DNA of 64,000 nt. Source: Endomicrobiales bacterium. GTDB taxonomy: Bacteria; Elusimicrobiota; Endomicrobiia; Endomicrobiales; CAWCFT01. A program made the translations under genes and the position numbers. The stretch covers positions 1-64,000 of the forward strand of contig CAWCFT010000003.1 in NCBI GenBank assembly GCA_963794945.1. Direction: 5' to 3'. This document shows, in pieces, positions 38,738 to 62,424 of this stretch; positions within the stretch are counted from its first letter, which is position 1, and the number at the start of each line of letters is the position of its first letter. The notes below the pieces were generated by a model that did not search any database, was not told the DNA's origin, and worked only from the letters and a program-made list of their open reading frames with translations.

Positions 38738-40960
38738 ACGATACAATATTCTCGCTTGATATTGGAACAAGGAAGATCGGGATATTCGCTACCAGGCACT
38801 ACGATGATTATGCTGAGGTCCTGGTCAACAAGATCGTAGAACATAAGAGCAGGGCTGTCCGCGCGGGGCAGATCCATGATATTGATAAGGTAGCTGCGCT
38901 GGTTTCGGAGATAAAGGCAGTTGTTGAAAAAGAGAGTGGTCTTGAAGTTAAAAAAGTTGCGACGGCCATCGCGGGCAGGAATCTTAAATCAATGAGAGCA
39001 GTTGGTGAAATCAAATTTGACGCGTCGCGTGAGATAACTGAAAGCGAGCTGCGCCAGGTTGAGCTCTCTGCGATCCAGGATGCCATCAACCGTTCGCAGG
39101 ATGAAATAGACGATTACCTTTTTGTCGGGTATACAGTCGTTTCCTGGCAGCTTGACGGGGAAGACATGACAAACCCGTTGAACCATTATGCGAACAGTCT
39201 GCGGACCAATATCATTACCACTTTTCTTCCCAAAAAGGTGTTAGAAAGTCTTTTTGCGGTGATAAAAAAAGCAGGCCTTGAGATATCGTATCTTACGCTT
39301 GAACCCATAGCCGCGGCCGAGGCCGTGCTTCCCGCGGAAATGAGGCATATACCGCTCGTTTTGGTAGACATCGGAGCCGGTACGTCTGACATCGCTATTG
39401 TCTCAAGGGGAAGCATTCAGTCTTTCGGCATGATACCTTCGGCTGGCGATTTCATGACTGAATATATCTGCGGTGAGATGCTGGTAGATTTTATCGAAGC
39501 GGAAAGGATAAAACGTGAGTTTGGCAGTGATACCGGCGCCGAATCTGACGATACCCGGACCATCAAGTATAAAGACATATTTTCCAGAGAATACGAAAAA
39601 AGCTTTAAAGAGATACGCGAACTTACGGCTCCTGCGGTTAAAGAACTCTCTGAAAAGATCGCTTCTGAAATAAAGACCCTGGTGTCCAGCCCCGACGTTG
39701 CGTTAAAGAATTATGCGGTCGTGCTTGTGGGAGGTGGAAGCCTTACGTATGGGCTCGTGTCTCGCCTGGCTGCCACACTAGGCATCCCTGAAAACCGCGT
39801 GGGCCTGCGTTCGCCGGCCATGGTTAACAGGTTCATACTTAATCTTCAACTAATAAAAGACCTACAGCTTAACGAGGCAGGCAGTTACAGCCTCAATAAT
39901 GTATTTGGGCCGCAAACGGCTGTACTGCTGGGGGTTTCGTGCCTATCAGCAAAAATGCCAGCCGCGGCACTAATTCATGTGACGATAAACGACAAAAAAT
40001 CTGAAATAATAAATTTTAAGGAAGGCGGATTAACAGTCATTTCGGCGCTTGTAGCTGAAGGTATCAACAGGCAAAAGATCACCGGCAGGGTCGGTCTTGC
40101 AAAGATATTCTCCTTGAATGGAGTTCAAAGGGTCATTAAAGGGAAACTTCCGGAGCCGGCCAGGATAATAGTTAACGGTGAGCCAGCCGGAATAAATACC
40201 CTGCTTAAAGAAGGCGACAGGATAGAGTTTTTCCAGGCCTCAGACGGCAATGACGCCCGCGTGAGGGTCGCTGATATTCTGCCCCCGCCGGAAACATTTT
40301 TATTTAATCAAAAGCTTTTAAGCTTCCCGGTCAAAGTTACTATAAACGGACAGAGTGCAGTACTAGAAGAAGAAATCCCCGACAACGCGAAGATCGAGAT
40401 CGTAAATGATTATTCGTTATCATCCGCTCTCGTTGTGGCGGGCGTAGCGCCAGAGAACCTTATGGAGCAGACCGTCTCATTTGATGTTCTGGGGCAAAAG
40501 ATTGAAAAAAAGGTCAGGAACTGCATTTTGAAGGTCAATGGGAAAGAGTTTGTTGGCCCGAGTGACATCATTAACGCCACTATCAGCCCATGCGACGGTA
40601 TAATATGTGAAAATATCAGAACCGGCGATAAGAGCTGGAGAACTTGTTGCGGTACCGGGCAAGGGAAGGGACCTCAGGATAAAAATTAACACCGAAGAAT
40701 TTATTTTCCCTGGATCGCACGGAAAAATATTGTTGAACGGCAGAGAAGTTTCGGAAGAGACCGAAGTCAACGACGGGGATATTTTGCGTACTATGTCAGG
40801 CCGCGACGCGGAGGCGGTGCTAGTAGATATTTTTCGCTATATATCACTTGAACCGCGCGACACAGCAGGCAAACGCCTTAAGTTGCTGGTAAACCAGCAG
40901 GAAGCGAATTTCACGACGCCGTTGAGTCATGATGCGGATGTTAAGATCAGTTTTGAGTGA
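38734..40960 (+). CDS. FtsA/PilM-like actin-fold ATPase with C-terminal ThiS/ubiquitin-like repeats (frameshift near 40620)
   Basis: LDIGTRKI, LEPIAA, VDIGAGTSD and VGGGS actin motifs; repeated (I/V)NG...L..GD.I beta-grasp units that continue into ORF 40607-40960. Confidence 0.85.
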
Positions 40961-43165: not shown

Positions 43166-44386
43166 ATGGTAAAAATTCTGATCATGGACGACGAGCCGGG
43201 CTTAAGAAATATAGTGTACAACATTGTAAAACCGCTCGGTCATCCGGTTTTTACTTCCGAAGACGGTCATCAAGCTCTGGAGGTTGCGAAAAGGGAGAAT
43301 CCTGATATCGCCTTGCTTGATGTCAGAGTGCCGGATATGGACGGGCTGGAAGTACTGGCTGAGCTCAGAAAGATCAATCCGAACATAAAAGCTATAATGC
43401 TCTCTGGTTTTGGGGACGTGGAAAGCGCAGTTTTTGCTCTCAAACAGGGGGCGTTCGATTATATAAGCAAACCATTTAAAGTGGATGACGTAATTAAAAC
43501 GGTCAATAAGGCAATAAGCGCTATGGGTCAAGGTCAAGCAGCAGCTCCAGCAGCAAGTTCTGCTGGTCAGCAGCCAGCACAGGCACCTGCTATGGCCCGC
43601 GACAAGGCCACGAAACCGGAAACTGCCGCAACAAAGCTACAGAACAAGCCGCCCATTGGTCTTATAGCTGGCGGGGCACTGGTCCTCGCAGTGGCGGGCA
43701 TTTTTCTTTTCAAAGGTATTCTGACTAAATCACATGCCGAAAGCTATACGATACCCTACTCAAATCCTATAGGTATGTGCTGGATAAAACCATACCTTTG
43801 GGTAAGCGATTGGGTCGTGGGCAATATCTACCAACATAACAATGACGCGACACTTTCGATAGCTTCTGTTTATAAAACCAATAACACCCAGCCGACAGGC
43901 ATCACTTTTGATGGTGAAGCGTTGTGGACATGCAGTTCGGTAGAGAAAAGGATATACAAACATAGAATGGATAAAAATCTGTCGGTATCAGAGATATTCT
44001 CCACCCCGAACAGCAGCCCGGCTGGATTATACTTTGATGGAGCCAACCTCTGGGTACTAGATACCAACGCGGCGAAGATCTATAAGCATAAAATGGACGA
44101 AACTCTTTCTATTGTGAGCGTTTTCGACAGCCCAGCTGTCAGCCCTTGCGGTATGTTCCGGGACGGCGAGTATTTCTATATAGGCGACTATAAAACTTCA
44201 CGAATTTACAAGGTGTCGGTAAATGATTTTTCCGTAAGAGAAGTGTATTCAATGCCGGATTTTGAGGAAGGTAAGAATAAGCTGGCCAGCATCACATGGG
44301 ACGGTTCCAGCATCTGGGCTACGGCTGATGGTGTTGGAAAGATATTTAAAATACCGTTTAAATCTTTAAAAACAATCAAATTTTAG
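43166..44386 (+). CDS. REC-linker-TM-periplasmic beta-propeller protein
   Basis: Intact REC (MDDE, LLDVRVP, SKP), Ala/Pro/Gln linker, TM (IGLIAGGALVLAVAGIFLF), repeated P.G..FDG..LW..D....IYKH blades. Confidence 0.85.
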   Translation: MVKILIMDDEPGLRNIVYNIVKPLGHPVFTSEDGHQALEVAKRENPDIALLDVRVPDMDGLEVLAELRKINPNIKAIMLSGFGDVESAVFALKQGAFDYISKPFKVDDVIKTVNKAISAMGQGQAAAPAASSAGQQPAQAPAMARDKATKPETAATKLQNKPPIGLIAGGALVLAVAGIFLFKGILTKSHAESYTIPYSNPIGMCWIKPYLWVSDWVVGNIYQHNNDATLSIASVYKTNNTQPTGITFDGEALWTCSSVEKRIYKHRMDKNLSVSEIFSTPNSSPAGLYFDGANLWVLDTNAAKIYKHKMDETLSIVSVFDSPAVSPCGMFRDGEYFYIGDYKTSRIYKVSVNDFSVREVYSMPDFEEGKNKLASITWDGSSIWATADGVGKIFKIPFKSLKTIKF

Positions 44387-45021: not shown

Positions 45022-45059
45022 AACCGGATTGTCCGTGGCGACGATTCGGTTTTTATTTT
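45022..45059 (+). terminator. Intrinsic terminator, expression platform of riboswitch 2
   Basis: 12-bp stem AACCGGATTGTC / GACGATTCGGTT (two G-U pairs), 6-nt loop, then a T tract, 15 nt before the first start codon. Confidence 0.85.
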
Positions 45060-45073
45060 GCGAGGGTAAAAAG

Positions 45074-45460
45074 ATGGAGAAAAAAATGGTTTTGAAAATG
45101 ATTCTCACGGCACTGGCTCTTCTGGCTGGCTGGACGGTTCTCCCGTCTGCCGGTTCTGAGCAGGCTTACAGTATCGTTACAAATTTTCCGAATCCATTTG
45201 ATAGCCGGGAAGGGTCAACGACCATCTGTTACACACTTTCCTCCGAATCGGAAGTACAGGCAAAGATATACGATCTCCTTGGAAATCTTGTCAGGGAGTA
45301 TCCGTCCAAGATCGAAACAGCCGGGATAAAAACGGTTGTTTGGGATGGGACGGACCAGTATGGCGCCAAAGTTTCCAAAGGCGGCTATATTCTGACGGTT
45401 GAGATTAAAAGCGGTTCCGAAAGCATAATTGCTACCCGCAAGATTGGCGTGATCCACTAA
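45074..45460 (+). CDS. Small exported protein made of a single FlgD-Ig / T9SS-CTD-like domain
   Basis: Signal peptide, then NFPNPF...T.I.Y.L...IYDLLGNLVR...VVWDGTDQYG..V..GGY. Confidence 0.85.
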   Translation: MEKKMVLKMILTALALLAGWTVLPSAGSEQAYSIVTNFPNPFDSREGSTTICYTLSSESEVQAKIYDLLGNLVREYPSKIETAGIKTVVWDGTDQYGAKVSKGGYILTVEIKSGSESIIATRKIGVIH

Positions 45461-45472
45461 GAGAGGAAGAAA

Positions 45473-47104
45473 ATGGAAAGGTCGATGAAAAACACGAATC
45501 TTAACAAGACCATAAGCAAAATCGCATTGATTTTGCTGACGGGATTCGTATTTTTATCGATAAATGTCATCAGTCCGGAGCGCATATTCGCTGACGCTAC
45601 CGGCGGTCAACCTGGACAATTCCTTGCGTGGGGCGCGGGCGCAAGGTCGCTTGCGATGGGCAGTGCCTTTTATTCCGTTTCGGATGACGCCTCTGCTACT
45701 TACTGGAACCCGGCGGGACTTGCCCAGATGGACCGCAAAGAATTAATGGCTCTGCATGTCAGTCTGTTTGCCGACACGAACTATGATTTTATTTCTTATG
45801 TACACCCGACCCCAAAGTACGGCGTGTTCGGGTTGAACCTGACAAGGCTTGATTCGGGCGGCTTTGAAAAGGTCAATATCACCTACGATTCGACTCAAAC
45901 CGATATAATAAATATTCAGAACATGGGCACTTTTGATGATGTGCAAACCGCGTTAACCGGCGCTTACGGCAAGAAGATCAGCGAGCATCTTTCGATAGGA
46001 GTATCAGGCAAATACATAACGCACACATTAGACACGTCAACAAACGGTTTCCTGACTTTCGATGTTGCCACAATGGTGCAGGGGGTCAGTAAAGAGCTTC
46101 CCAAGCTTAAGCTTGGGTTCGGCATACAGAACCTTATGGGCACTAAATTCGGCGATACGGATGACGTGTTGCCTATAATATTTCGCGCTGGAGTAAGTCA
46201 CCCCTTCTTAAGAGATAAACTTTTAGTAGCTTTCGATATAGATAAAAACATGAATACCAGCATGGGCTGGCACATAGGAACCGAATACTGGTTGTTGAAT
46301 TTCGCGGCCCTCCGCATCGGTTTCCAGGGCGGCAATGGTCTGACAGAAACTGACGCTGGGTTTGGAGTAAAATACAAGGATTATGGCATAGATTATGCAT
46401 TCGGTATACAAGACCTGGGGCTTTCAAGCAGGATATCGGGTACCTGGAGATTCGGGCCTTCCATCTCTGAGAACCGCGAAATCCTAGTTCGCCGCTACAT
46501 GCAGGAAGGCATGGAGGCGTACCGTCAAGGCAACTTCCTGCTTGCGTTCAACAGGCTTGAGGCAAGTCTTGACATAGACCCCGCGAACAAGGATGTTCAA
46601 AAGATGCATAGCAGGATGCAGCTTATAGTAGGATACCTCCAAACAGCTGCGGGTGAGAGCGAAGAAGCGGTATCTATCAGAAAGGGCGTTGCCGGATATG
46701 TTGAAAGCGATGAGAAGGGTGCTGTAAACGCTTTCAGATATGCTTATTACAAGAACCCAAATAATACAAAACTGCTTGCTTTATTAAACAGAATCGAAAA
46801 AGATGCCGGTATAACGACAACCGAGGCCTACAAAGAAGATGTTGTCGGCTTTACAATCATAGACCAGAAAGTTTACGACGCACGCCAGTCAATAGTAGAA
46901 GGTAAATATGATCAGGCGCTTATAAAGTGCCAAGAAATACTGAACCTTGAGCCCGCGAACCTTACAGCTATGGAAGTCATGGGTTCAGCGTTCTTCATGA
47001 TGGACCAGCCGGATAAGGCGAAACAGGTGTGGATGAAGGTTATGGAACTTGATCCGACAAACAAGGTCGTGCCCGAGTTCATTAATCAGCTCAAAGAGAA
47101 ATAA
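45473..47104 (+). CDS. PorV/PorQ (UPF0164)-like outer-membrane beta-barrel with C-terminal TPRs
   Basis: Signal peptide; FLAWGAGARSLAMGSAF..VSDDASATYWNPAGLA family motif; alternating beta strands ending IDYAF; helical TPR tail. Confidence 0.85.
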   Translation: MERSMKNTNLNKTISKIALILLTGFVFLSINVISPERIFADATGGQPGQFLAWGAGARSLAMGSAFYSVSDDASATYWNPAGLAQMDRKELMALHVSLFADTNYDFISYVHPTPKYGVFGLNLTRLDSGGFEKVNITYDSTQTDIINIQNMGTFDDVQTALTGAYGKKISEHLSIGVSGKYITHTLDTSTNGFLTFDVATMVQGVSKELPKLKLGFGIQNLMGTKFGDTDDVLPIIFRAGVSHPFLRDKLLVAFDIDKNMNTSMGWHIGTEYWLLNFAALRIGFQGGNGLTETDAGFGVKYKDYGIDYAFGIQDLGLSSRISGTWRFGPSISENREILVRRYMQEGMEAYRQGNFLLAFNRLEASLDIDPANKDVQKMHSRMQLIVGYLQTAAGESEEAVSIRKGVAGYVESDEKGAVNAFRYAYYKNPNNTKLLALLNRIEKDAGITTTEAYKEDVVGFTIIDQKVYDARQSIVEGKYDQALIKCQEILNLEPANLTAMEVMGSAFFMMDQPDKAKQVWMKVMELDPTNKVVPEFINQLKEK

Positions 47105-47112
47105 ATATCCTA

Positions 47113-47141
47113 TTGAAATGATTGATAATTCAATCTATACT
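47113..47141 (+). promoter_or_regulatory. Possible internal promoter with a palindrome in the spacer
   Basis: TTGAAA, 17 bp, TATACT; the spacer contains GATTGA-TAAT-TCAATC. Confidence 0.5.
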
Positions 47142-47162
47142 AAGTACTGTGAGGGATTAAGA

Positions 47163-48969
47163 ATGGAAAAAATTATTAAACGAATTCTAATTGTTTTTGC
47201 GGCTGTTTTTCTAACAGTAGCGCTTCGCTTTCCGCTTGGCTGGTCTCAGAGCACGCAGGATGATTCCCAGCAAAACAACCTGATGGACAAAGAGGCGAAA
47301 TTCGAGAAAGATAAAGCAGAATACCTGCAGTCGTTCGTGCTCGACAAGATACTTGGCCCCGGCAAGGCTATAGTTATAGTAGATGTACAAATGGGCACAG
47401 AGACAAAGGTTACAAAACAGGAAGCAAACCAGAAGAAATCAGAAAGAAAGAAAAGGCTGGGCGAAGTAGAATACCTACTTCCCGGAGTTCCGAACCCTAA
47501 ATCGGTAGCGCAGGAGTCAGCACCAGGCGAGTCTAAAGAAGAAACAGGCCAGGCGCAGGAAACAAAGGTGCAGGTGTTGACTGTTATAAAGAAACTTATA
47601 GTGACCGTTTTGTACGATGAAAAGATCACCCAGGATAAGCTTGATATAGTTAAAGACGCGATCATGTCTTCTATGAAGATAGACGTAAAAAGAGGAGACA
47701 AAATAGAATTTAAAAAAACAAAATTCACGCAGGGTTTTGTTGACGAACTGATGAAACCTCAGATACTCGTGCCTATCATTTTCGCTATGATGCTATTGTT
47801 TTTCCTGTTCGGCCCGGTAGCCAGTTTCCTGAGGTCTTTTGTCAAGACAATGCGCGAAAAAGGCGGAACAGAGGTCACCGTGGACTCGAAATTCGAGGGC
47901 GCTGGAGATGAAGAAGGAAAGGGCGGTGGCGGCGGCAACGGAGCCCTCACGGCATCAGAACTCGAGGCGCTGGAGAAAGAGAAAAAGAAATATCATCCTT
48001 TTGATTACATCAATGATGAAAACCTCAAGCGCATGGTTTACCTTATAAGAAGAGAGCCTCCACAGAGCGTGGCCCTTGTCGTGAGTTATCTTAAGCCCGA
48101 ATACGTCAGAGAGGTCTTGAACGCACTGACCCCTGAAATGCAGGCAAAAGTCGCTTTGGAAATGGCCACTATACGTTCCATGGATGAAGAGCAGGTCAAA
48201 AAAATAGACGACCACATCAAAGAAAAAATAGAGTTCCTAATTGGCGGTATATCGCACCTTCTTGAGGTTATCGACCAGGTAGACAAAGTTACACAGAACA
48301 ATATTTTTGATTATTTAAGGAATGAAAAACCAGAGCTCTATGATAAGGTAAGGAAATTCGTTCTTATGTGGGAAGATATACCGAATTTCCCGGATCAGGC
48401 GATGCAGGTGATAATAAGGGAGCTGAAAACACAAGATATGGCAAAGGCTCTGCGTAACGCAAGCTCAGAACGTGCTTAATAAGTATTTTGCCAATATGTC
48501 GGCCAATGCCGCGGCTATATTAAAAGAGGAAATGGAATACGGAAGGCCGCTTACGGACGCAGAGATTGAAGAGGAAAGAAAGCGAATAATAAATTTGATA
48601 AAGCAGCTTGAGAAAGACGGTCGCGTTTTCATAAGAGAAAAACCGAAGACCGACGTTCTTGAAGGAATAGAAGACAACGGCGGCGAACCCGTGCCTGAAG
48701 AGCAGGGCACGGCGAGTTACGAAGAGTATTATAACGCAGGAGCCCAATATTATGAGTTGTCGCAATTTGAAGAGGCGTTATCGTATTTTGAGTACTGCGC
48801 GCAGTTGGATCCTAACCAGCCGGCAATCTATCAGTATCTTGGAAATACATATTATGCGCTCGGCCGCAGCGCCGAAGCGATAGCGTCATTTGAAAAGGCA
48901 TTGGAACTCAATCCGGAGGATCAGGGTCTTCGGGCGTGGCTCTCAGAGCAAAAAAACGCCATAAGTTGA
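47163..48969 (+). CDS. FliF C-terminal (RBM3)-TM-FliG middle/C-terminal-TPR fusion protein (frameshift near 48470)
   Basis: LDKILGPGKAIVIVDV and IKKLIVTVLYD...KRGDKIEF (FliF ring motif); TM; PFDYI...REPPQSVALVVSYL (FliG EHPQ), GG, LMWEDI (MFxFEDL), ALRNA, NMSANAAAILKEEM (torque helix); C-terminal TPRs. Confidence 0.85.
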
Positions 48970-49081: not shown

Positions 49082-52000
49082 ATGGGCTTGTTCAAGAAAG
49101 ATAAACTAAAAGAAGAACAAAAACTCTCTGAGGCAAAATTGCCGAAAAGCCTAGAAGAAAAAAAGTCTATTTTGCCTGAAAGTGAAGACCTCTCACACTC
49201 AAGACAACGCGCTGAGGAACAGATAAGGGCGCTTGAAGAAAAAATTCAGAACCAGAGAGACAGCTGGGGCGCCAAAATGAAGGAGAAGGAAGAAGAAAGG
49301 ATATCTCTAGGCGCTCAGCTTGAGATGCTTGTACGTAAGGTTCAGAACGAGCGCGAGAAAAAAGAAGGTGAGTTGAACCTCCTTGAACAGCAGGTACAAA
49401 GAGACCTGGTTGAAGCCCAAAAATCTCTTGAAAATGAGATCAAAACATGGAATGAACGCCTTAGCGTTAAAGATAAAGAGATCGAACAAACAAAAGAGGA
49501 AGCGGAGTTGATCGAAACCAGAAAGAGGATAGAGAGCGATCAGAATTCAAGAGCTTTGAAATCCCAGTTGGAACAGATCGATCAAAAATATAAGACTCTT
49601 GAAAGAAAAATGCTCGAAGAGCAGAATACGTGGATAACTAGGATCAAAGGCAAAGAAGAAGAAATTTTAGGCGTAAAAACACAGGTCTCGCTTAAAGAAT
49701 CACAGATATCTATTGAAAACGAGAAGGATCAGACGCTAAAAAAAGAAAAAGAAACGGCATGGCAAGGCCAGGTTCAGGAATTAGAAACAAAGCTTAAGAC
49801 GCAGGAGCTTGAGTTCGAAAAAGAATACAAGAGGAAGCAGGATGAATTATCGGCCTTAAAAACAGCTATCGAGGCCAGGCTCAGCTCCATAACCATGGAA
49901 GCTGAGAAAAGGGAAAAAGAAACTCTGAGCCTTATTGCCAGGACCGAAGACAGGATAAAGATAATAAACGGGCATATTACCGAAGAGAATAAACATTGGC
50001 AAACTGTGCTTAAAGCCCGGGATGAGGAATTCAATAAGCTTAAAGTCGAACTTATGCTCCGCGAAAGCCAGGAAAAATCCGAAAGAGAGAAAAAGTTTCA
50101 GGAACTCGGAGAAGCTGAATCGCTGGCCAATAGAAAAATTAAGGAAATACGGCAGAAAATTAATGATGAAAAAGAAAACTGGAAAATTAGCCTCGATGCA
50201 AAAGAAGAAGAACTGAAGCTGCTGAAGATACAATCAGAACTTAAGCTCAAAGAAGTTCAGGAAATGTGGGAAAGCAGGAAGACAAGAGCTCAGGAAGAGA
50301 AATCGATCCTTGAGAAAAAACTCGTAGCGATCAGGGACAATTTTGAGCAGGAAAAGAATAACCTGAAAAAAGAACTAGATATTAAGACCGCGGATATAGA
50401 ACAGTATGAGCAAAAATGGCAGCAGAGGCAGAATGAGATCGCTGCTGCGAACACAAAAGAGCTGGAAGAGCTCAAGGCTCGCAAAGAAATACTTGAGGTG
50501 GAACTAGAGGAGCTTGAGGAAAACCTTAAAAATGAGAAGGCGAAGTGGGCAGGCCTGATACTTCAGAAAGAACAGGAAGCCAATGTCGTAAAAAATGAGC
50601 TAAAAGGCCGAGAATCTTCAGCTTTGAGGGATCTTGAGATCCTTGATATGCAGTTAAATAAGGAACAGCAACCGCTTCTCGATAAAGTCCGGGATATGGA
50701 AAAGCGTTTTGAAGACCACAAAAAACTTGTCAAGGCTGAACTCGGGCGCCGGGAAGCCGCGAAAACGGCACTTGAGGAACAATTCCGTGTAAGAGAAGAA
50801 AATTTGCTTCTGCGCCATAACAAGCAATCTGAAAAAATTAAAGTCCTTGAACAGGAAAATCTTTTAAAGATCTCAGAACTGAAAAAAAGCATGGAGGAGC
50901 AGTCTCAGTCCGCTCTTAAGAGGATAAATGAACTTAAGTCGGAAGAAAACATGGTCAAAGAAAAGCTCTCTTCGCAAGATAAGACAATAGCGGAAGAAAA
51001 GGCCAAACTTGAGGAACAGTATAAACACCGTAACAATATTTTGTTAGAATCGATACAAAATCTTGAGATAGAAAATGAGCGGCAAAGAGGACAACTGCAG
51101 GCCGAATTGGAAAATATGACAAAGGCTGCGGAAGAGATTAAAACAGAACTTGAGAAAAAAGAAAATCAGCTTTTGGCAGACCTGAAGCTTAAAGAAAAAG
51201 AGCAGGCATCGATAAAGACGTCTTCGGAAGCTGAGGTCGCAAAACTAGCCGAGGCGCTGACCAAAAACAATGAAGAATATGAGCGTGAGATAAAAGCTCA
51301 CAGGGAATCAATAGAGGCGCTGGAAAAGTCGTTCAAGAGCAAAGATGCCCAATTTCAAGCTGAAATAAAGAACATAAAAATAGAATGGGATAACAAGCTT
51401 CAACCCTTAAATGACGAACGCAAACAGCAGGAAGCGCGTCTGGCATTGTCAAAAAAAGAAGCCGAAGACAGAGCGCTCGCTATAGAGAATGCCATAAAAA
51501 TGTCCAGGGAGCAATACAAAATACAGGAAGAGAACGCCGCCAGAAATATATTGCAGGAAAATTTAAGGATTCAAGCGATAAAAGAAAAGCTTGCAAAAGA
51601 GGCTGCCGCTCTGAATCTGGAGATTGATACGCAATCCAGGCAGGCAAAGGAAATAATTGAAAAGCTTGCGCTTAGAGAGAAGGCCCTCGAAAACAATATT
51701 GCCGTTGAAGACCAGAGGCTGCACGCAGAAAGGGTCAGGGTAACCCAATTCTACGAAAATCAGCAAAAACAGCTCAACGAAACAATTAACAAGCTTGAAA
51801 AGGATTATTCGGATTTCGTAAAAAGCGTTGATGCGGATATAAAACTTAAAAATGCTGAACTGGTTCGGGAAGAAAAGAGAGTGAGAGATCTTGAGATGGA
51901 AAATCTCAAGGATATGAAACAAAAAGAGCAGGAGCTTTCGTTATTAGAAAATGAAAACAAAAAAGAACTCGCCGCGTTGTTTGCAGAGTACAATAGGATT

Positions 52001-54653
52001 AAAAATGAAAAAAGCGCTGAGATTAAATCAAAAGAAGAAACAATGGTGTCGCTTGTAAAATCACTGCAGGAGAACAAGGTCATTTATGATAGAGAGCTCG
52101 AGGCGCTCAAATCCAGTCTTGCCGCGGAACTGGAGCCGGTATCAAAGCGCAGGCAGGAGTTAAAAACGGATTTTGAACGGGCCAGAAAAGAGGCTGAAGA
52201 GAAGCTTGTCGCGGCCGCTAAAAGAATAGAATCTCTTAAAGCCGAGCAGGTAGCTTTGACCGCGGAATTTGAACGAAGACACGCTGAGTCTTCCGCGAAG
52301 ATGTCCTCCGCTAAAGCTGATTTTGACGGCCAGGTCAAAACACTGCTCGAACAGAAAGCTGGATATGAAAAAGAGGCAGCGGAAACTATAGCCGCCAAGG
52401 AATCTGAGATAAGCGCGCTAGAAAGCGAGGCCAACCAAAAGAAACTCGCTTTCGAAAAGCAAAAAGGGGGTTTGCAGTCACAGGGGCACTCGCTGATAGA
52501 AAAGGTTAAAGAAGAGATCTCGTCACTGGAAAAGGAAATGTCGCGGCTGGAAAAAGAATACCCGCAGGTCCTGCTGGAGCGTGAGAAAGAAATATCGCTG
52601 CTGACCTCCAGAATAGAGCAAAGATCTATAGAGAACAAGGACAAGTTGGACCTCGCAGAAAAAAGTACTGAAAATTATCAAAAGCGAGCTGAACGCCGTA
52701 TCACACAGCTTAAGGGGCAAATAAAGGAAGCGCAGGAGCACCACAAAAAAGAACTGGAATCGATCGAGGCCAGGCTCTCCAATATTCACTCGGATATAGC
52801 AAAGAAGGAGAATTCATACCAGGAAGAATTCTTAAGAGAAGGAAAAATATTTGCCGAGCAAAAATACGTTCTCGAGAAACAGAAAGCAGAATTTGGCGAA
52901 AAACTCAGGGACCTGCAGTTGTATTCAAGGGAGCAGTTGAGGCAAAAAGAGAAAGAAATACTTATCCTCCAGAGTGATCTGGCTGAAAAAGAAAAAGCCT
53001 GGGAAGAAAGTTGGAAGCAAAAGGAGCAGGAGCTGGCGATAGAAAAAAATTCGCTTTTGCAAGAGCTCGAGAGTCTTGACGCAAAGCTGAAAGACGAAGA
53101 GGAAACGGTCAAAAAAAGAATAAATGAAAAAGAACGTGAAATACAGTCTCTGGAAAATACATACTATACAAAACTTGAAAACATGTCGGCCGAGATGTCT
53201 TCAAAAAAGAAAGTGTGGGAAGACACTAATTTAGGCCTTAAGAACCAGGCTGAACAGCTAAAAAATAGCCTGGCCTCGCTAGAAAACAGTTGGGAAGAAA
53301 CAAAGGCACAAAAAGAGAAAGAGTTGTCCGTTCTTAAATCCAATCTTGAATTTTGGGAATTACGTTCAAAGAACGAAGAAGAAAAAAGACTGGCCGCGTG
53401 GGAAGAAGAAAGATCCGGCCTTGAGAGCAAAGTTAAAGACGCAGAAAATAAGCTGGCCGCGCTGAAAAAAGAATATTCTGCGAAGAACGAGGAGAAGGAA
53501 GCCGCGTTAAATGCCTTAAGGGTCCAGGGTGAAGAGAACGAAAAGGAAAAACTGAATGAACTAAAAAAGATTGAGACAGACTATACAGCGGCACAGAACT
53601 CACTTGCGCTGGAGATATCAGCCTGGGAAAAGAAACTCAAAGAAGAAACTCTCAGGACGGAGAAGGAAAAGAAAGAGATAGAGCGTGAGCTTGAAAAGCT
53701 GAAACTTGAAAGCGCCCTAAAAGAGAACGCAGCAATGTTCTGAGCAGCAAAAGAACGAAAGGAAATGGCGTAAACTCCAGAGAGACCTTGAAGAACAGCT
53801 GATAGACTATGAACGCCAATTTGCCGACGAAAAAGAGAGCTTAAAGAGTAAGCTTAACATGAAGGCAGAAGAGATCAGTACGCTTAAAGTAAGAATGTCG
53901 CTTAGAGAAGAAAGACGCCAGTCAGAGATAAAGCACCGCCAGGAAGAGACACAAAAGATAATATCCGGCCTGGAATCAGAGCTCAAAGTGCTAGAAGATA
54001 AATACGGTAATAATATGGGCGCCTTAAATACAAGCCTGGGAAAATCAAGAAAAGAACTTGAAATGTTGAAGCAAGAAGCTATGGAAAAAGAAGAGAAGTG
54101 GGAAAAAGAAAACGAAAGCAGGGAAAATGCCGCGTCGAGCGCATATGCTTTGATAAATAAAGATCTTGAGGATGTGGAAAACGAATTGAGAAAGGAGAGC
54201 GAAAGGCTTGAGAGGATGCTGGATATAAAGCAGAAACAAATCGCCAATTTGACAGCACAGATGCAGTCTAAAGAAGCCGGCCTTATAACTGAAAGGGATT
54301 ATTCTCAGATAATACTGCAGGGGTTGCAGAAAAAAGCCGGCGATCTTCAGGGAGTACTGAACAAGCTCCAAAGGAATGGCAAAGAAAACGAAAAAGAAGG
54401 TCTTGGGCGCGTTTTCGAAGAAGCTATCGAGCATTATAACAGTGGTAATTACGAGAAAGCGAAAGAAAAACTGGGGCAAATATTGAAATCAAATCCGGAG
54501 TTCGCCGGGGCTTATCAATATCTTGCGCTATGCAGCTGGAACCTGGGAGAAAAAGAAGAGTCTTTGAAACTTGCCAGGAAAGCGTTCGAGCTTGAACCCC
54601 ACAATGAAGAATTGAAACTCTGGATAGAATATATAGAAAAAGAAAGTAAATAA
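49082..54653 (+). CDS. Giant coiled-coil protein (~1855 aa) with C-terminal TPRs (frameshift near 53738)
   Basis: E/K/L/Q-rich with almost no Pro or Gly; ORFs 49082-53743 and 53859-54653 are contiguous in composition; TPR pair at the C-terminus; RBS GGAGG. Confidence 0.85.
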
Positions 54654-54678: not shown

Positions 54679-57600
54679 ATGGCTGACGACAAAAAACCAA
54701 AAATTCCGCCTCTTCCGCCGCAGAGGCCGCCAATGCCGAAACCGGCGGGTGGAGCGACTATACCTAAAGCGGGCCTGCCACCCCAGGCGCCAAGGCCGCA
54801 AGGGGTGCCGGTTAAACCTGTGATGCCTGCGATGAAACCTCCGGTAGCCGAACAAGCTCCTGCGAAGTACGCGCAGGGAAATCTTTCTCCAGCATCTAGT
54901 GAAGTCGACGAGATAAGAAAACAAATGGAATCTCAGATCATGGGCCTGCAGTATCAGCTGCAAGAAGAAAAAGAAAAACTCCTTCTTCAGACAGTCCGCG
55001 CGAAAGAAGAAGAAGCTATGGCGGCGAAAGTCGAAGAATCTCTTAAAGATATACAAGACAGGTTGCGCCGCGAGAAACGCGAGCAGGAACTGCAGGACTC
55101 CTTAGCGAAGTCCGAGCTCCAGGTAAAGGAACTCGAGCAAAGGGTCAGTGCGGAACGCCAAACGTGGGTTGAAACTTTGAAATCGCAGGTCGGTCAGAGG
55201 GAGAGCCAGGATAAGGAGCTCGAGCGCGATTTTGAGTTGAAGCTTAAGGAACTTGAGCGGCGCTGGCACGAAGAGAAGCTTGGCTGGTCTCAGGCTCTAA
55301 GGGGTAAAGACGAAGAGGTGGCTAGGCTCAAAAGGGAAGCTGAAGCGGCCATTACCGCTGAAAAAGGCAATTCCGAAAAACGCATCTCACAGCTGGAAAC
55401 AGAAAGGGACGCTTTCAGAAGGGAGATCAAGGAGATCGTTGACGTACGTGACCAGGAACGCGCGATGACCGCCTCAAAACTCGAAGCTCGCGACAAAGAG
55501 TTCCTATCGCTCAAGGCTCAGCAGGCGATGGTAGTTACCCAGTTGCGCCAGGGAAAAGAAAAAGAGGACCAACTTAGGGCGCTTCTGGAAAGAATGCGCG
55601 CCGAGAAAAACGGCCTCATCACCCAGCTGGACGCGAAAGACAAAGAATACTTTATGCTAAAAACGCAGTTCGCTCTCTATCAGAACACGGGCAAAAACTG
55701 AGCAGGAAAAGCTGATGAAAGAGATGCTGCTCTATAAAGAACAAATGCAGAAAGACCGGGATAACTGGGAAGTGAATATAAAAACTAAAGAGAACGAGCT
55801 GAGGATAATTTCCGATAACGCTAAGGATCGCGAGAACTCTTTAAAACAGTTGCTTGAGAAAAAAGAGATTGAACATACGTCATTTGTCAGGGAATACGAG
55901 GACAAGCTGAGGGCTCAGGAAGCTGCGTTCAGTCAGGTTGTCGAGAAGAAAGAAAGCGAAGCGTCTGCAGCGGTCAGGAAGGCTGAAGAGAAGATCATTG
56001 CCCGGGAGATCGAGTTTAAACAAGCGCTTGAAAAAAAGGACCTCGAGAAGGTTTTGCAAATAAGAGAGATGGAAGAGAAGATGCGTTCCCAGGAAGCTGT
56101 TTTCAGGCAGGCCGCTGAAAAGAAAGAAATTGAATTATCGGCTTTTGCCAGAACAGGCTGAGGAAAAACTTAAAGCCAGAGAGATTGAGCTGAGGCACTT
56201 GATAGAACAGAAGGATGCTGATATAAAAGAAGCGGTTAAAGACAATGTGGTAAAGATAACGGCCCTCGAGCAAGCTCACGGTCAGCAGATCGCTCAGAAA
56301 GACCATGAATTCAGAAATCAGCAATTGCAGTGGATCGAACGTATTCAGGTGAAAGAAAAAGAGATCAACGCGGCCGCAGAAAAGGAGAACACGTTAAAGG
56401 TGAGGATCGCACAGGTAGAACAAGTTGTACACCAGCTGGAAGAAAAACTTAAAAATGAGACCGAGTCACTTATCGCTGAGCGGGCCCACAATGAACAGAA
56501 CGAGAGGGAGTTCAATGCCGCCATCGTGCGAAAAGAAAATGAGTTCAAAGAAGCAGTTTCGAAGCAGGAAGAAAAATTACGCGCCATTGGAAAAGAGCTC
56601 GCCGAGTCTCTTGCCCACTCGCAGATACTTAACCTCGAAATAGCCAAAAGAGAGCAGCAACTCATTCAATTCAAGTCTGATATAGAACGGAGCGCACAGT
56701 CGGCTGCCTTGCTAGCAAAAGAGAACGAGAGCAAATCAATAGAGCTAACAGAAGCCTTGTCTCGCGCTCAAGGCCTAAGCCTTGAAGTGGCGATGAAAGG
56801 TCAGCAGCTGATTCAGTTCAAAACGGAGCTCGATAGGAGCGAAAAAACAATTGAGGCGCTCAAGAGCGAAAACGAAATAAAAATAAAGGAATTAGCCGAT
56901 GCCGCGGCGCGTGCTCAGGGCCTCGGCCTAGAACTCGCCAAGAAAGAGCATGAGCTCGTTCAGGCAAAGATCGATATAGATAGGGCTTCACAGGCGTTCC
57001 TCGTCATGGAGAAGGAAAAAGAAGGCAGGATGAAAGAGGTGTCCGAGCTTATCGAAAAGAGCAGAGAACTCAGCTCTCGCCTTATTGAACAAGAACGTAA
57101 CAGTAGAGAGCTCTCAGAGCGCATAAGAGATAAGTCGGAAGAGGCCGCGCGTGTGACAGAAATTTTAGCGCGGACGGAGAATGAGCTTAAGGTGGCACGC
57201 TCGGGCTTCCTAACAGAACTTTCAAAAAAAGAGAATGAAATAATCTCTTTCAGGGAGAAAGACAGCGACTCAAGGGTCAAGATATCATCCTTTGAGCAAA
57301 GGATTAGAGAACTTGAGGAAAAACTTGAAAATGGGGAACAGGCCATTAAGGGAAAAGATGATATGCTGCGCGATAAGGAGACAGAACTTCTTATACAGCA
57401 GGAAAAGACGGAGCAGGCAAAAAAGGAGCTCAATGATAGACTTTTAAAAGAGCAGGAAAAATTCACACTCGCGGTCGATCAACTTAAAAAAGAGTCGGGT
57501 GATAAGTTATTACAGGAAGAATCTAAATTGAAGGCGCAAACGGATCTCTTAAAAGAAGAGGCCAGGAATGCCGTAAATTTGAAAGAGCTTGAAATAAGGG

Positions 57601-58676
57601 ACCTGAGGAATGAAAAAGAGAATCTGAAGACAGAAGCCGCGAAGATGTCGATGGAGATAGTTTCCAAGGAAAAGGATATATATGAATTAAAGAACAGCCT
57701 GCTCTCCAAGGAAAGAGAAATAACCCATGAAGTGGAGCGCAGGGAGTCTGTGTTTGCTGGCGAAAGGAACGCGATGTCGGAAAAAATACGGATGCTTGAA
57801 GATGCCCTGAGAGAGGCTCAGAACAATTCAGGGGAAGGGGCTAAGCGCCTGGAACAAGAACTCAAGGAAAAAGTAGAGGAGTTTACCGCAGAAAAGAGAA
57901 ATAAAGACGAAGCGATAACCGCCCTAAAAGCGGAGAATAATGCCTGGCGCCTGGAAAAGGAAAAGCTGCTCGAGCTTAAGGCCCAGTCTGAAGACATGAA
58001 CCAGGCGGAGCTTATGAGCGTGCAGAGGAAACTCTGGGAAAACAAAGAGAAGTCCAACGAGCAGCTCAAGGAAATGGAGCGGGAGATCACCGCACTCAGA
58101 GATGCTCAGAAAGACGTCGAAGAAAAGGTAAGAACGGAGCTACTGAATAAATACAGCGCGAAGATAATGGAGCTGGAAAAAGAGAATGAGACGCTGTCAA
58201 AAGATGTTTCTACAGAGGTGCGTACGCTCAGGAGCTCGCTGCAGGAGGAACTTAAGAAAAAAGAGGAGCAGCTAAGCACCGAACGCTCTAGCTGGGAAAT
58301 GAAGCTTAAGGAGAAAGAAGACATTATCGCCGACATGGCGAAAAAAATGGAGAGTGCCGGTGAGAAACAAAAGGAAAAGGACGTTATGTCCACCGTGCAG
58401 GCGATAAAGAACGCCGTAGAGACAAGAACTGTGGGCTCTGACGCTTCTATAAACGACAAAACGTTGGTCATAGAAAGGGCTAAAGACCTATTTGATAAAA
58501 CCGCGGTAATAGAGCCTCGTTCGAAAAGCGATGACACTATCCCGGCTGTTAAGGGCATAGACCTGCCGTCTAGCGATAAAAGGTCGCTTTCCGGTCTGAT
58601 CTGCGGTATATGGAAGAGCATCAACGAGCCCGTCATAGAAATTAACGTTAAAAAAAATGAAGATAGAAAAGGATAA
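54679..58676 (+). CDS. Giant coiled-coil protein (~1330 aa) with Pro-rich N-terminus (frameshifts near 55685 and 56148)
   Basis: Three abutting ORFs (54679-55701, 55715-56161, 56130-58676) of continuous coiled-coil character; RBS AGGAGG at the first. Confidence 0.8.
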
Positions 58677-59194: not shown

Positions 59195-60315
59195 ATGGGG
59201 CATATAAAGATATACATTTCGTTTTCGTTGCTCTGCGCGGTGACTTTGTTCTGCGTGCGCGAGCAACATGTCGCGCTCAAAAAAGATGCGTCCAATCCCG
59301 ACCAGCCTGCCGGGAATGGGCAATATTAAACCCGCAAAAACAGCACCTATATCTGCAACGCCGGCCGAGCAGAAAGGGGCGCCAGAAAAGGAAAAGCCAC
59401 AAGAGGTGAAAACTCCTGAGGCCGCCGAACCGGCAGTTAAGGAAGAAGAAACAGAACACCTTAGGAAGCACAATGCCGGGCGCAGGTGTTGAAAAATCAA
59501 CAAAAAGTGAAATAGCTCCGGAACCGGCGATAAAAATCAACGCAAGCGCAAAAGAAGAGCAGAAGGCGCCAAGCTTAAATTTGCTGCCGCTCAAAATTAT
59601 TTTTAGTAATTCTGGGAACGCAAAGTCACTGGATGACAATGAATCTCACCCGAGCGTAACCGTCAAGCAGCCTGTGCCTGAAGTCAAGCAGGAACAGACT
59701 AAGCCGCCAGAACCTGTTATAAAAGAAGAACAAAAGCCTGTACCAGCGCCCATTGAAGAAAAACCGCAGGAAACAGAAGAAACAATAAATACTCCGCCTC
59801 CTGTTCCAGTGCCAGAGCAAAAGCCGTTAGTTCAAGAAGAAGAGAAACAGGCGCCGGCCGCTCCGGTAAAAGAAACACAGGAAAATGTGGCCCAGCCTGA
59901 GCCGGTAAATAGCGCCGAGCCCGAAGTTAAAGAAAAAGAGGAACAGAAAAGCGTTATTGAGAAGAAGGCGGAGCCTGTCGAAGTGGAGCCGGCCCCCACG
60001 GCACCGGCAAAGGTGCCCGCACCGGTTCCTGCACTCATCCCGGCTCCCGTGAAGAGTGCGGCCAGCGTTGCAGGCGTTAAAATTGACAAACAGGCAAAGA
60101 AAAAATTATTTCTAGAGCATAAAAAGTCGCAACAGGCAAAAGCCGAAAACCAGCGCCAGGCCAGGATGCATACGGTTGTCGTTGGGGACAACCTGCAGTC
60201 GCTGGCCGAAAAATATTATGGTGATAAATCCATGTGGGTAAAATTATACGACGCAAATAAAGATAAGTTAGAGAAAGGCACGCTGGAAGCAGGCCAAACA
60301 ATTTTGATCCCATAA
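59195..60315 (+). CDS. LysM peptidoglycan-binding lipoprotein with a long Pro/Glu/Lys-rich linker (frameshifts near 59240 and 59465)
   Basis: Hydrophobic leader from ATG 59195, lipobox-like SAC|ASN, low-complexity linker, C-terminal LysM HTVVVGDNLQSLAEKYYGDKSMWVKLYDAN...GQTILIP. Confidence 0.8.
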
Positions 60316-60365
60316 ATTTCAGAACCGTTTTACATATGGGCCCATTAAACCGGGCGGAGGCTATA

Positions 60366-62424
60366 ATGGACGAATTTAAAGACATCGATACCGAACTCAT
60401 GAGGCTCAAGGAAGAGCTCAACTCAAAACATGAAGATTTCAGTCACGTGAAATTCCCATCGTCCGGTGATTACTGGCGTTCGCGCCTTGATGAAGAAAGG
60501 GTGCTCTGGGATAAAAAAGTTGTGCTTGGCAGCGAAGAGAGAAAGGCGCTCGAGAAGAAGCTAAACGAGCAGGAAGAGCTCCTTTCGCGCTACAACCAGA
60601 GCGTCAGGGAAATGGAAAGAAAGATAGAGAACGATACAAAACTCTGGGAGGACCGCCTAAGGATCAAAGAAGCCGACATAATGATCGAAAAAAGCCGGCT
60701 ACAAAGCGAAGCCAGGGTCAAAGAGATCGAGCTCGAAAGGCAGAGCCTCATGAAACACGTAACCGAGCTCTCTCTTAAAATATCAGAACTGCGCGACGAC
60801 CAGGCAGCAGAGATAGAAATACTGAACATGCATGCGAAGCAAGACGCCGACCTTTATGAACAAAAACTCAAGGTTGCTGCGGCCGAATCCGACGCGCTGA
60901 AGAACAGGATGTCCGATGCGGAGAGCGTACTGAAAGCCCGTATATCGGAACTTGAAAAGCTTAAAGAAGAGTACAGGGTAAGGCTTGAGGCAGCGGAAAA
61001 GAAGGCCGAAGAGGAAGCACGAGCAAGGTTCGCAAGCGATGAAGCGGCGTCAAAAACAAGAGCTAAGTCGGAAGAAGACAAGATCCAGATAAGAAAATCA
61101 TTTGAAACCACAACTATTAAATTCGCCGGTATCATCAATAAAGATGTGGGTGCCCTGGCCGGCCTTTCCGGCATTGCCGCCGATCACGAGCTAAAAAAAG
61201 AGACACTACTTATCATTAAAGGTTTGACCGGAAAACTGCAGTCGGAGTTGGGCGGGTTCGAGAAAGAACTTAACTTAAAATTCGATGTGGACGACAATTT
61301 CAAAGCCGCTATCATCATGAGTGAAGATGAAGCCGCCTACTGGGAAGCGGCCCTCTCCGGCACGCGCGTGACGATGGAAAAACTCGGCGTAAAATCGAAT
61401 GTCAAAAAGTCGATTCCCGCTTTGAAACCGTGCGTTTGTGTCGTTTCGTTAAAAAAAATCAAGGCGGCGAGAACGATCAAAGCCAGGTGGCCATTCGTCC
61501 CGGTTATAATATATGGAGAACTCCCCGAGAAACGCAAGGCAAAACTTGAAAAGGGCGGTTTCATAACGGTATCTTCATACGGAACAGCGGACGATATGTA
61601 CCAGTCGCTTTGCGACGCTGCAAAGAACAGCGCTGCCCAGCCGGACTACTGGGGCAAAGTAAAAATTAAAAGCAGGTGGGTCCTGCCTACTATGTACGCG
61701 GCCGCGACTATGTTGCTTGCCGGCCGGCTTCATTTACATGAACAACCCTGCCCTGCTCGAAAGGTTCGGCAGGGTGGCATCCTACAGCGTGCCTTACAGC
61801 CAGCCTTCCAATATAACATTTGACGGCGCATACCTCTGGGGCTGCGATTGGTACGGCCAGAGCATATACAAACATGACACAACCCAGGGGCTGAAGCTCC
61901 TTAGGATATTCTGTTTTCCCGGCAAGCATTTTACGGCTATAACCTGGGCCGGCGGCTACCTCTGGAGCGCGGACGCTTGGGAAAATAAGATATACAAACA
62001 CAACACGGACGATAACTTCACCGTGCTTGAGACCTTCTCTACGCCCGGCACCGCAATAAGCGGCCTCGCTTTCGACGGGAAAAACCTATGGTCGTGCGAT
62101 TCCTCGGCTGGCATGATATACCGCCACACAATCGACGCCAACCTTACCGTTGAGGACGCTTTCGAGAGCCCCGGCGCGAGCCCGTCAGGGTTGTTCTTCG
62201 ATGGGAAAAATCTCTGGAGCGTCGATTCAAAGATAAACAGGATATTCCGCCACAAGATGGATGCTACCCTCAGCGTTGAGAAGTCGTTCATCCCGCCGCT
62301 TTACGACCAGAAGAATTACAACCTCAGCGGTATCGCCATAAAGAACAACAAGTTCTACGTGTGTTCAGAAAAGCTTGGAAAAGTATTTAGTTTTCCCGCG
62401 GAGAAAATGGAAGAGGTAAAGTGA
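60366..62424 (+). CDS. Coiled-coil-degenerate REC-TM-beta-propeller protein (frameshift near 61720)
   Basis: Coiled coil, pseudo-receiver (KPCVCVVS...IKARWPFVPVIIY), TM, and a propeller paralogous to 43166-44386 (YSVPYSQPS vs YTIPYSNPI; FDGKNLW; RHKMD). Confidence 0.8.

Follow-up and report, generated by a model that had tools for sequence, protein, structure and literature searches.

What would a bacterium build with a coiled coil of well over a thousand residues, and why should the length of that coil be kept so exactly? The question is raised by a gene at positions 49,082 to 54,653 of a 64,000-nucleotide (nt) stretch of DNA (hereafter the window; positions 1 to 64,000 of contig CAWCFT010000003.1, assembly GCA_963794945.1) from an Endomicrobiales bacterium of the phylum Elusimicrobiota. 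A first inspection made from the DNA alone (hereafter the sequence-only reading) had described the gene product as a giant coiled coil with an exact period of 61 residues. We find that the hydrophobic seam of this protein runs in a single phase through its whole rod, that the period is kept in every full-length homolog, and that rod length differs between homologs by whole blocks of four repeats. On balance, and by a modest degree of confidence, we favor the view that the product is one cytoplasmic protein of ~1,856 amino acids (aa) that serves as a fixed-length strut, spacer or ruler in an envelope apparatus encoded by the same operon.

The rod gene is one coding unit with a single extra base

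The rod gene forms one coding unit for a protein of ~1,856 aa, which in the window is interrupted by a single extra base and is read in two frames.

49082..53743, + strand: first reading frame, with the N-terminal tail and most of the rod (1,553 aa and a TGA stop)
53721..54653, + strand: continuation in the +1 frame, with the end of the rod, a linker and the tetratricopeptide repeat (TPR) domain (310 aa and a stop)
53735..53741, + strand: frame-change zone with one base too many, where the homolog consensus switches frame
49082..49099, + strand: N-terminal motif M-x-x-F-K-K (here MGLFKK), M1 and F4 being invariant in 8/8 aligned homologs

The two frames share ~20 nt, the +1 frame being open from as early as 53721, and within the +1 frame lies an ATG-bounded open reading frame (ORF) of 264 aa (53859..54653). 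The homolog consensus fits frame 1 until ...ALKENAA and then the +1 frame starting at SEQQKNERKWRKLQ..., and the hydrophobic phase (see below) crosses this join at 0 to -13 degrees, provided that zero residues are gained or lost. Over its entire length the first frame is 64% identical to the intact 1,855-aa homolog P0002, and the intact homologs of 1,851 to 1,860 aa contain no internal stops. The sequence-only reading had assumed a single protein of ~1855 aa that starts with MGLFKK and ends in TPRs. Both termini are confirmed by the translation and by Pfam, and the single protein holds for the gene product; it does not hold for the open frame, as the window contains frames of 1,553 and 310 aa. 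The sequence of the first ORF shows neither a visible signal peptide nor a hydrophobic segment.

The same kind of split is found in the essential gene for arginine-tRNA ligase, argS (3431-5085, - strand), which is broken into at least two frames with model positions 2-131 and 223-569 in separate ORFs. At least four other genes of the locus are split relative to their orthologs, namely those for the FliG-like protein, the downstream coiled-coil protein (in three pieces), a ~690-aa protein and an FtsA-like protein. As argS and these genes are broken likewise, the frame break in the rod gene is most probably an assembly indel. The broken frame at ~53738 and the damage to several neighbors could also be taken as signs of a decaying pseudogene, or of a low-complexity annotation artefact. 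We find this barely credible, since an essential gene is broken in the same way, the orthologs are free of internal stops, and both pieces of the rod gene retain the phase and the sequence of the family.

A Trp motif recurs in steps of exactly 61 residues

The repeat is most easily seen in the rod's N-terminal portion.

49253..50590, + strand: eight N-terminal repeats bearing the Trp motif (codon positions and motif scan)

Upon re-reading of the codons, all eight positions given earlier proved correct. TGG codons are located at 49265, 49448, 49631, 49997, 50180 and 50546, a TTC (Phe) codon at 49814 and a CTG (Leu) codon at 50363, corresponding to residues 62, 123, 184, 245, 306, 367, 428 and 489 in steps of exactly 61 residues (183 nt). 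The motif proposed around them, E-x3-W-x3-[LIM]-x2-[KR]-[ED]-x-E with F or L as variants of Trp, does have F at 245 and L at 428, and its strict form holds at five of the eight positions (123, 184, 306, 367 and 489). The other three are conservative variants, W62 having Q for E at -4. Shuffled sequences gave a mean of 0.002 strict matches and a maximum of 1 (2,000 shuffles), compared with the five observed. In addition, 7 of the 17 Trp residues of the first ORF fall into one residue class modulo 61, and six or more were reached in 0 of 5,000 random placements.

At the DNA level, Tandem Repeats Finder did not find a 183-nt array (two trivial short runs only) and a repeat search of the rod gene returned short degenerate matches only, in line with the absence of an evident DNA repeat noted before. 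With no repeat left in the DNA, the 61-residue repeat is old.

A single 61/17 period runs through the rod

The periodic part of the protein extends far beyond the repeats with the Trp motif.

49202..54300, + strand: phase-coherent coiled-coil rod (residues ~41 to ~1,740, ~28 units of 61 residues)

Autocorrelation with BLOSUM62 peaks at lags of 61, 122, 183, 244, 305 and 366 (z 11 to 14), with z = 14.3, 14.4, 11.4 and 14.2 at the first four when compared with 200 shuffles. Secondary lags at 18, 25, 36 and 43 indicate that 61 = 25+18+18. Fourier analysis of the residues LIVMFWY, a check called for by the sequence-only reading, is dominated by one line, at 61/17 = 3.588 residues (power 21.5, z ~115, 300 shuffles), compared with a power of ~0.1 at 3.5. 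Within 61-residue windows that begin at residues 41 to 1687, this line keeps a phase of -27 to +21 degrees; the phase decays only at ~1,710 to 1,750, ahead of the TPR domain. Since a one-residue slip would move it by 100 degrees, the helix seam is unbroken for ~1,700 residues. When the sequence is laid out in rows of 61, the register is likewise kept from residue 62 through the end of the first ORF. The coherent part of the rod corresponds to ~250 nm, and the earlier estimate of up to ~270 nm was too long. In a genome-wide control the rod ORF was the sole outlier of 1,544 stop-to-stop ORFs of at least 250 aa, with a power of 20.9 at 3.588, compared with 7.8 at 3.56 for the runner-up. The latter is a 531-aa ORF (G000 C12:73574-75166) with a peak close to 25/7.

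To describe the unit itself, 270 repeat units from 11 proteins were pooled into a column profile. The profile has 17 core positions per unit with 4/3 spacing, equivalent to seven heptad-type pairs and three extra four-residue steps. Twelve core columns are strongly hydrophobic (1, 5, 12, 15, 19, 26, 30, 37, 44, 48, 51 and 55), with an Ala content of 3 to 11%, and five are weaker, being mostly Lys/Arg (8, 22 and 33) or Glu/Leu (40 and 58). Column 1, one of three stutter sites, contains Trp in 31% of the units, and Gly and Pro are absent from the five commonest residues in every column. The unit is thus composed of four heptads and three hendecads (4x7 + 3x11), arranged as 25+18+18. Together with its conservation and the lack of a DNA repeat, this bears out the old non-heptad repeat of 3x11+4x7 that had been offered as an example.

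The period is conserved in all full-length homologs

A word-indexed search identified eight homologs, and an exhaustive phmmer search with the first 1,200 residues against 1.84 billion representatives gave 33 matches, 17 of them full-length, which makes the family a rare one; comparison of the family alignment with genome contigs gave one locus. The best period is 3.588 in the first ORF of the window, in 8/8 homologs from the word search, in 9/9 further full-length proteins and in the genome-derived copies. All 20 full-length homologs share the 61/17 period, down to ~20% identity, and the phase is coherent over the entire rod in every homolog examined for it. The power at 3.588 ranges from 12.7 to 29.4, compared with 0.0 to 0.5 at 3.5, and a canonical heptad coiled coil (7/2 = 3.5) was rejected on these values. 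The period is therefore significant along the protein as well as across its family, one of the points at which the sequence-only reading had considered itself open to refutation.

In a sample of 31 genomes of the order, the rod protein was detected in eight, including the genome of the window (hereafter the own genome), and was not found in any of 16 small-genome members of one family. The operon that carries the rod gene belongs to the free-living Endomicrobiales, and is conserved there. Among named relatives, those that best match the GatB of the window come from metagenome-assembled genomes with the label Endomicrobiales or Elusimicrobiota. A search of the ESM Atlas returned generic TPR clusters only, all < 0.9.

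Rod length changes in blocks of 244 residues

The full-length proteins fall into three length classes, at ~1,610, ~1,855 and 2,098 aa, set apart by exactly 244 or 488 residues (4 or 8 repeats). The short class (1,533 to 1,637 aa) comprises 14 of the 20 proteins in the tree, the medium class (1,851 to 1,860 aa) five, to which the window protein is added, and the long class (2,098 aa) a single member (G012). Between classes, MAFFT introduced a single gap, exactly 244 or 488 residues long (52+192 = 244 in one alignment), and no other net indels were observed in the rod. In an ungapped scan that allowed one gap of any size, 244 or 488 was ahead by ~900 to 1,260 score units in 6/6 pairs. Of the 13 proteins that have both anchors, 12 show a distance of n x 61 + 40 to 43 residues from the first detected Trp motif to the TPR anchor, where n is 23 or 24, 27 or 28, or 32; P0009 deviates, and G011 has no match to the TPR anchor. 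A quick maximum-likelihood tree has short forms on every deep branch and places the medium and long forms inside a single well-supported clade, in which the sister of the long form is a medium form (SH-like approximate likelihood ratio test, SH-aLRT, 100). This topology calls for two or more separate events in which 244 residues were added. An argument from a central insert and the symmetry of the rod was dropped, as different pairs place the insert best at rod residues anywhere from ~470 to ~790.

The few prolines of the rod follow the same spacing. In the window these include the following.

50672..50674, + strand: Pro531, column 43 of repeat 8, the first of the 244-spaced prolines
51404-51406, + strand: Pro775, of the 244-spaced series
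52136-52138, + strand: Pro1019, of the 244-spaced series
52562-52564, + strand: Pro1161, column 2 of repeat 19

Each rod contains three to six prolines, nearly all in three column classes. The column-43 Pro, in the context E-x-x-P-[LVF], is present in repeat 8 in 12/12 proteins and in repeat 12 in 10/12. Five of the six medium forms have it in repeat 16, and the one long form has it in repeat 20, so that it recurs in every fourth repeat. A column-2 Pro lies 142 residues after the last column-43 Pro in 11 of 12 proteins (the exception being P0005), and a column-60 Pro follows 485 residues after the column-2 Pro in 8 of the 11 whole proteins. Judged by this spacing, which is better evidence than the autocorrelation, 244 residues appear to constitute a structural unit. 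The rod looks segmented by potential kinks into a stretch of ~490 residues, then one, two or three times 244, then 142, 485 and a last stretch up to the TPR domain.

Predicted structure, strand number and orientation

The AlphaFold2 (AF2) model of residues 41-345 (five repeats, 5-row alignment) consists of one helix (H2-304), with a mean predicted local distance difference test (pLDDT) score of 88.8, and a hairpin or spectrin-like bundle is therefore ruled out for the unit. The model of the C-terminal 310 aa (pLDDT 82.2) contains a helix at 2-95, a four-residue break, a second helix at 100-240 and four TPR helices (244-257, 262-274, 278-291 and 296-309).

54414..54647, + strand: C-terminal TPR domain, with two TPR motifs and a capping helix (Pfam TPR_2, AF2 and Foldseek)

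Pfam TPR_2 matches the C-terminus with 37.3 bits (cut-off 27). Foldseek with the last ~80 residues retrieved CTPR2 (1na3_A, rmsd 1.0 over 80 columns), CTPR3, CHIP and SGT, with a probability of 1.00 at ~1 Å.

The rod shows the sustained hydrophobic seam, with a period of ~3.5 to 3.7, by which coiled coils are generally recognized. E, K and R are also very abundant, opposite-charge pairs within the helix are strong at i+3 and i+4, and the AF2 monomer model is one straight helix, features that would suit a single stable alpha-helix (ER/K-type) acting as spacer instead of a multi-stranded coil. Such a helix would leave the seam (z ~115, 12 of every 61 positions with Leu/Ile) exposed, and ER/K helices are not known to have a hydrophobic seam of this kind; this explanation is very improbable in our judgment.

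For the number and orientation of the strands, several features of the rod can be compared. Lys/Arg predominate at core columns 8, 22 and 33, three of the 17 core positions. This fits a dimer, since a dimer tolerates long polar side chains in its core, with solvent within their reach (PMC13580157, in its accessible part). The proline positions are not palindromic (P0006: 529+1400 vs 773+915), and kinks of the strands would therefore coincide only in parallel, in-register pairing. A core-pairing score, which is crude and favors parallel pairing largely by construction, was 0.79 to 0.88 for the parallel in-register arrangement vs 0.45 to 0.52 for the best antiparallel one. On the polar core columns and the proline pattern we take the rod to be, most probably, a coil of two parallel strands in register.

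In an antiparallel arrangement, either two chains would pair head-to-tail or one chain would fold back on itself as in the arms of SMC/Rad50, placing the N-terminus near the TPR domain. Such pairing would enforce indels limited to blocks in the central third of the rod, as found here, and the N- and C-terminal repeats are more alike than either is to the middle (lags 915 to 1220). Moreover, the g-e' signature expected of parallel dimers, an excess of opposite charges from i to i+5, is missing (sum -34, mean z -0.13). However, the hydrophobic phase runs straight through the center, without a hinge, loop or globular domain, the prolines are not symmetric about any center, no register stands out in the antiparallel pairing scan, and Walker and hinge domains were not found with Pfam, NCBIfam or the PDB profile. 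Antiparallel pairing thus seems improbable to us, and we retain the parallel two-stranded coil.

An undistorted helix has 3.63 residues per turn (PMC9858780, accessible part). The period of 3.588 implies a left-handed supercoil approximately one third as steep as that of heptads. By our own arithmetic, which takes a relaxed helix at 3.63 to 3.64 residues per turn, one supercoil turn is estimated at roughly 250 to 310 residues. The rod should therefore be a nearly straight, slightly left-handed rope.

The rod matches none of the coiled-coil families compared

No Pfam family and no NCBIfam family matched residues 1-1553. A profile of the family searched against PDB sequences retrieved almost only TPR proteins, with three marginal rows of coiled-coil type at E above 2e-4, and no SMC chain. 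The protein is not SMC-like, and these searches agree with the earlier remark that no Walker motifs were seen. SMC/Rad50 arms resemble the rod in that hundreds of coiled-coil residues occur in a very large prokaryotic protein, but the rod has no ATPase head with Walker A/B motifs, no hinge, no family match and no break at mid-length, where its phase continues, and these proteins were rejected as a model. Spectrin-type repeats were rejected as well, as there are no loops, the AF2 model forms a single 303-residue helix and the phase is coherent across units.

Myosin II and paramyosin rods carry a 28-residue charge repeat, a 196/197-residue super-repeat and skip residues. Like our putatively two-stranded rod they are long and two-stranded, with a short period within a longer super-period and an exact length, but they are built from heptads with four skip residues, and their 28-residue charge banding sets the stagger; the rod described here has neither a heptad period (power ~0.1 at 3.5) nor long-range charge banding. 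Spc110 of the yeast spindle pole body and the transverse filaments of the synaptonemal complex are coiled-coil spacers that set a length. The likeness to the proposed role of the rod lies in a rigid coil whose residue count sets the distance between two attachment sites, although these proteins are eukaryotic, heptad-based and unrelated in sequence, and the two attachment sites of the rod are putative. A 51-residue repeat was reportedly described by Walshaw et al. in 2010; the period of 51/14 differs from that of our rod.

The Scy/FilP proteins of Streptomyces are likewise very long bacterial non-heptad coiled coils in which supercoiling is nearly abolished. The rod of Scy has >1,000 residues, consists almost entirely of hendecads and is dimeric (PMC9858780, accessible part). 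Their period is 11/3 = 3.67 with Ala-rich cores, whereas the rod studied here has a period of 61/17 = 3.588 and cores of Leu/Ile/Trp plus Lys/Arg; it also differs in its TPR C-terminus, in its phylum (Elusimicrobiota) and in its operon with FliG-like and PorV-like genes. Sequence kinship to Scy/FilP was not detectable, all 33 phmmer matches being members of the rod family. Membership of a DivIVA-like Scy/FilP family was rejected, given that there is no N-terminal DivIVA-like domain, the period is not 11/3 and the cores are not Ala-rich. In working principle, non-heptad rods of the Scy type and length-setting spacers come nearest to the rod, which is a member of neither group. A literature search returned no description of the rod family and no paper pairing a 61-residue repeat with a coiled coil, the hendecad literature it found being Scy/FilP and design papers only.

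The rod gene lies in a conserved operon

The rod gene is flanked on both sides by genes that recur with it in other genomes.

45029..45460, + strand: small secreted protein with a FlgD-Ig / type IX secretion system (T9SS)-tail-like domain (domain match and locus comparison)
45473..47104, + strand: PorV/PorQ-family outer-membrane barrel with a C-terminal TPR (NF033709, 140.3 bits, cut-off 90)
47049..48969, + strand: FliF-C / FliG_M / FliG_C / TPR protein, with a frameshift at ~48472
54679..58676, + strand: second long coiled-coil protein, split into 340+148+848 aa (relatives 828-1,244 aa)
59473..60315, + strand: LysM protein (PorP/SprF-like region in the G003 ortholog)
60336..62424, + strand: ~690-aa protein, split into 495+235 aa, with a Trp motif near the N-terminus

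The order PorV-TPR, FliG-TPR, giant rod, second coiled coil is found in 6/6 flanked loci, one of which is from an unclassified metagenome-assembled genome (MAG; 26% identity). An ortholog of the PorV/PorQ-family barrel is present upstream in all six loci, and the small FlgD-Ig-like protein lies directly upstream of the PorV/FliG/rod set in five. Relatives of the FliG-like protein have 600-627 aa, with two membrane segments, a periplasmic part of FliF-C-like type, a linker rich in Gly, the FliG_M and FliG_C domains and a C-terminal TPR. Related TPRs end three consecutive proteins of the operon. The Trp motif is present in two more operon proteins, the ~690-aa protein and the second coiled coil; in the latter (EKLNWAQ.LKNKEEEI) it is located near residue 205 in four of six orthologs and elsewhere in two. 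A coherent 61/17 line was not found in the second coiled-coil protein.

Directly upstream, in the window as well as in G006, lies a chemotaxis cluster (CheB, CheA, RR-PAS, FtsA-like, CheC, CheX, CheD and CheY, where RR is a response regulator). The output domain of the response regulator at 43166-44386 has a homolog in the C-terminal ~215 aa of the ~690-aa protein, and judging from this homology the shared domain may link chemosensory output to the operon. The domain has no family match, and its paralogs are 29 to 35% identical. The cluster also encodes an FtsA/MreB/PilM-like actin-fold protein (38734-40960, split into 651+117 aa; 743 aa in the G006 ortholog), which is unusually long.

In G003, a CHU_C (T9SS type B signal) adhesin-like protein is also encoded further downstream. 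Upstream of the operon in the same genome (L012 1-8940) lies a protein of >2,960 aa that ends in a FlgD-Ig-like domain, and similar ORFs of ~2,900 to 2,970 aa adjoin the operon in G005 and G012. These proteins of >2,900 aa may be giant surface cargo of the apparatus.

The FliG-like gene raises the question of a flagellum. A search of the own genome (85.9% complete) for FHIPEP (FlhA), Flagellin_N and YscJ_FliF found none, with positive controls in four flagellated genomes. Assignment of the rod to the flagellar apparatus by co-occurrence with FlhA, FliF and flagellin was rejected, as these were not found with it in the own genome. The same genome contains FliG_C in three genes, two of them, on contigs C4 and C16, in addition to that of the operon, and MotA/ExbB in four. 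Across the order, FliG_C genes occur in 11 of the 31 genomes, among which are all eight that bear the rod. This fits the orphan fliG and motAB genes described for the phylum: magnetotactic and most free-living Elusimicrobiota have no structural flagellar genes and numerous motAB, flbD and fliG homologues, the role of which is unclear (bioRxiv 10.1101/2022.07.08.499144, accessible part). In the accessible part of that preprint there is no mention of the giant coiled coil, of TPR fusions or of the operon described here. SprA was rejected as a partner that tracks the operon, as SprA-like matches, weak and below threshold, turn up in 29 of 31 genomes independently of it; these are ORFs of ~1,770 to 1,900 aa (e.g., G008:C39 and G005:C1).

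Elsewhere in the window, a 1,724-aa protein with TPR/PPR-like repeats and a radical-SAM/SPASM part is followed by a 665-aa TPR protein (5308-12487). Positions 8001-12000 show an extreme strand composition, with a GC skew of 0.53 to 0.59 and an AT skew of 0.33 to 0.40.

A fixed-length strut as the proposed role

We propose that the protein is laid out as an M-x-x-F-K-K N-terminus, a variable tail of ~40 residues, the rod and a small TPR domain. Selection would hold the length of the rod exact and allow only the addition of whole four-repeat blocks (244 residues, ~36 nm), bounded by the conserved prolines. The rod would act as a strut in an envelope-spanning apparatus, together with the PorV-like barrel-TPR protein, the membrane-anchored FliF/FliG-like-TPR protein and the second coiled coil, and its docking points would be the TPR end and the Trp motifs, 9 nm apart.

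A free-standing filament former of the intermediate filament, crescentin, FilP or Scy type would instead assemble laterally into cables or a lattice, independently of its neighbors. The rod has the features of such a protein in being a long bacterial non-heptad composite, as reported for Scy and FilP (PMC9858780, accessible part), in having a periodic sequence repeat and in lying near an FtsA/MreB-like gene. Fourier analysis of the charges gave only helical harmonics (61/27 and 61/30), and a long-range periodicity at 61, 61/2 or 61/3, which could set an axial stagger as in myosin-type packing, was not found. No DivIVA-like or other head domain was found on the rod by Pfam, the linkage with FliG-like and PorV-like genes is strict, and filament formers usually tolerate changes in length, whereas the rod changes only by whole 244-residue blocks. 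We therefore regard a free-standing filament as unlikely. The sequence-only reading had suggested a cytoskeletal filament, track or ruler; the exact length and the quanta of 244 residues favor the ruler or strut, and in the lack of long-range charge banding a filament banded at 9 nm gains no support.

A more far-reaching possibility, which we consider rather unlikely as a whole, is that the rod is both ruler and track of an undescribed motility or surface-organelle machine in the flagellum-less Elusimicrobiota. A jointed coil of 215, 250 or 290 nm would then position a ring-forming FliF/FliG-like rotor, the PorV-like barrel and T9SS-type adhesins, and the Trp motifs, spaced by 9 nm, would dock the TPR domains common to three operon proteins. 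The sole change in length allowed would be a proline-bounded 244-residue segment; as this is close to one supercoil turn, an added segment would keep both ends azimuthally aligned. Control of the machine by the chemotaxis cluster would run via the response regulator, the output domain of which is found again in the ~690-aa protein.

In addition to the missing g-e' signature and the nature of the pairing score, several points weigh against a strut of fixed length in an envelope apparatus. The tree comes from a quick search with a midpoint root, and inner branches of the medium and long clade are poorly resolved. The position of the 244-residue insert can be given no finer than rod residues ~430 to 900. 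As a super-repeat, 244 is weak in the autocorrelation, lag 244 exceeding lags 61, 122 and 183 in three of eight homologs. Synteny with the FliG-like and PorV-like genes constitutes an association, not physical contact, and at the given completeness of the own genome the flagellar genes count as not found, which is short of proven absence. As there is no long-range charge banding, lateral assembly of the rod is indicated neither way. Finally, its oligomeric state, partners and cytoplasmic location are deduced from sequence and genomic context.

For the coiled-coil field, the family offers a natural rope in which a composite 61/17 periodicity stays in phase over 1,450 to 1,950 residues in every member examined, and with it a clean test of how periodicity determines supercoiling and stiffness. 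The rod may be a rare case of a bacterial protein with a length conserved to the residue, which changes only in quanta of 36 nm. The locus connects the orphan FliG-like proteins of free-living Elusimicrobiota with a giant rod, and so provides a concrete operon in which the idea of a new envelope machine can be tested.

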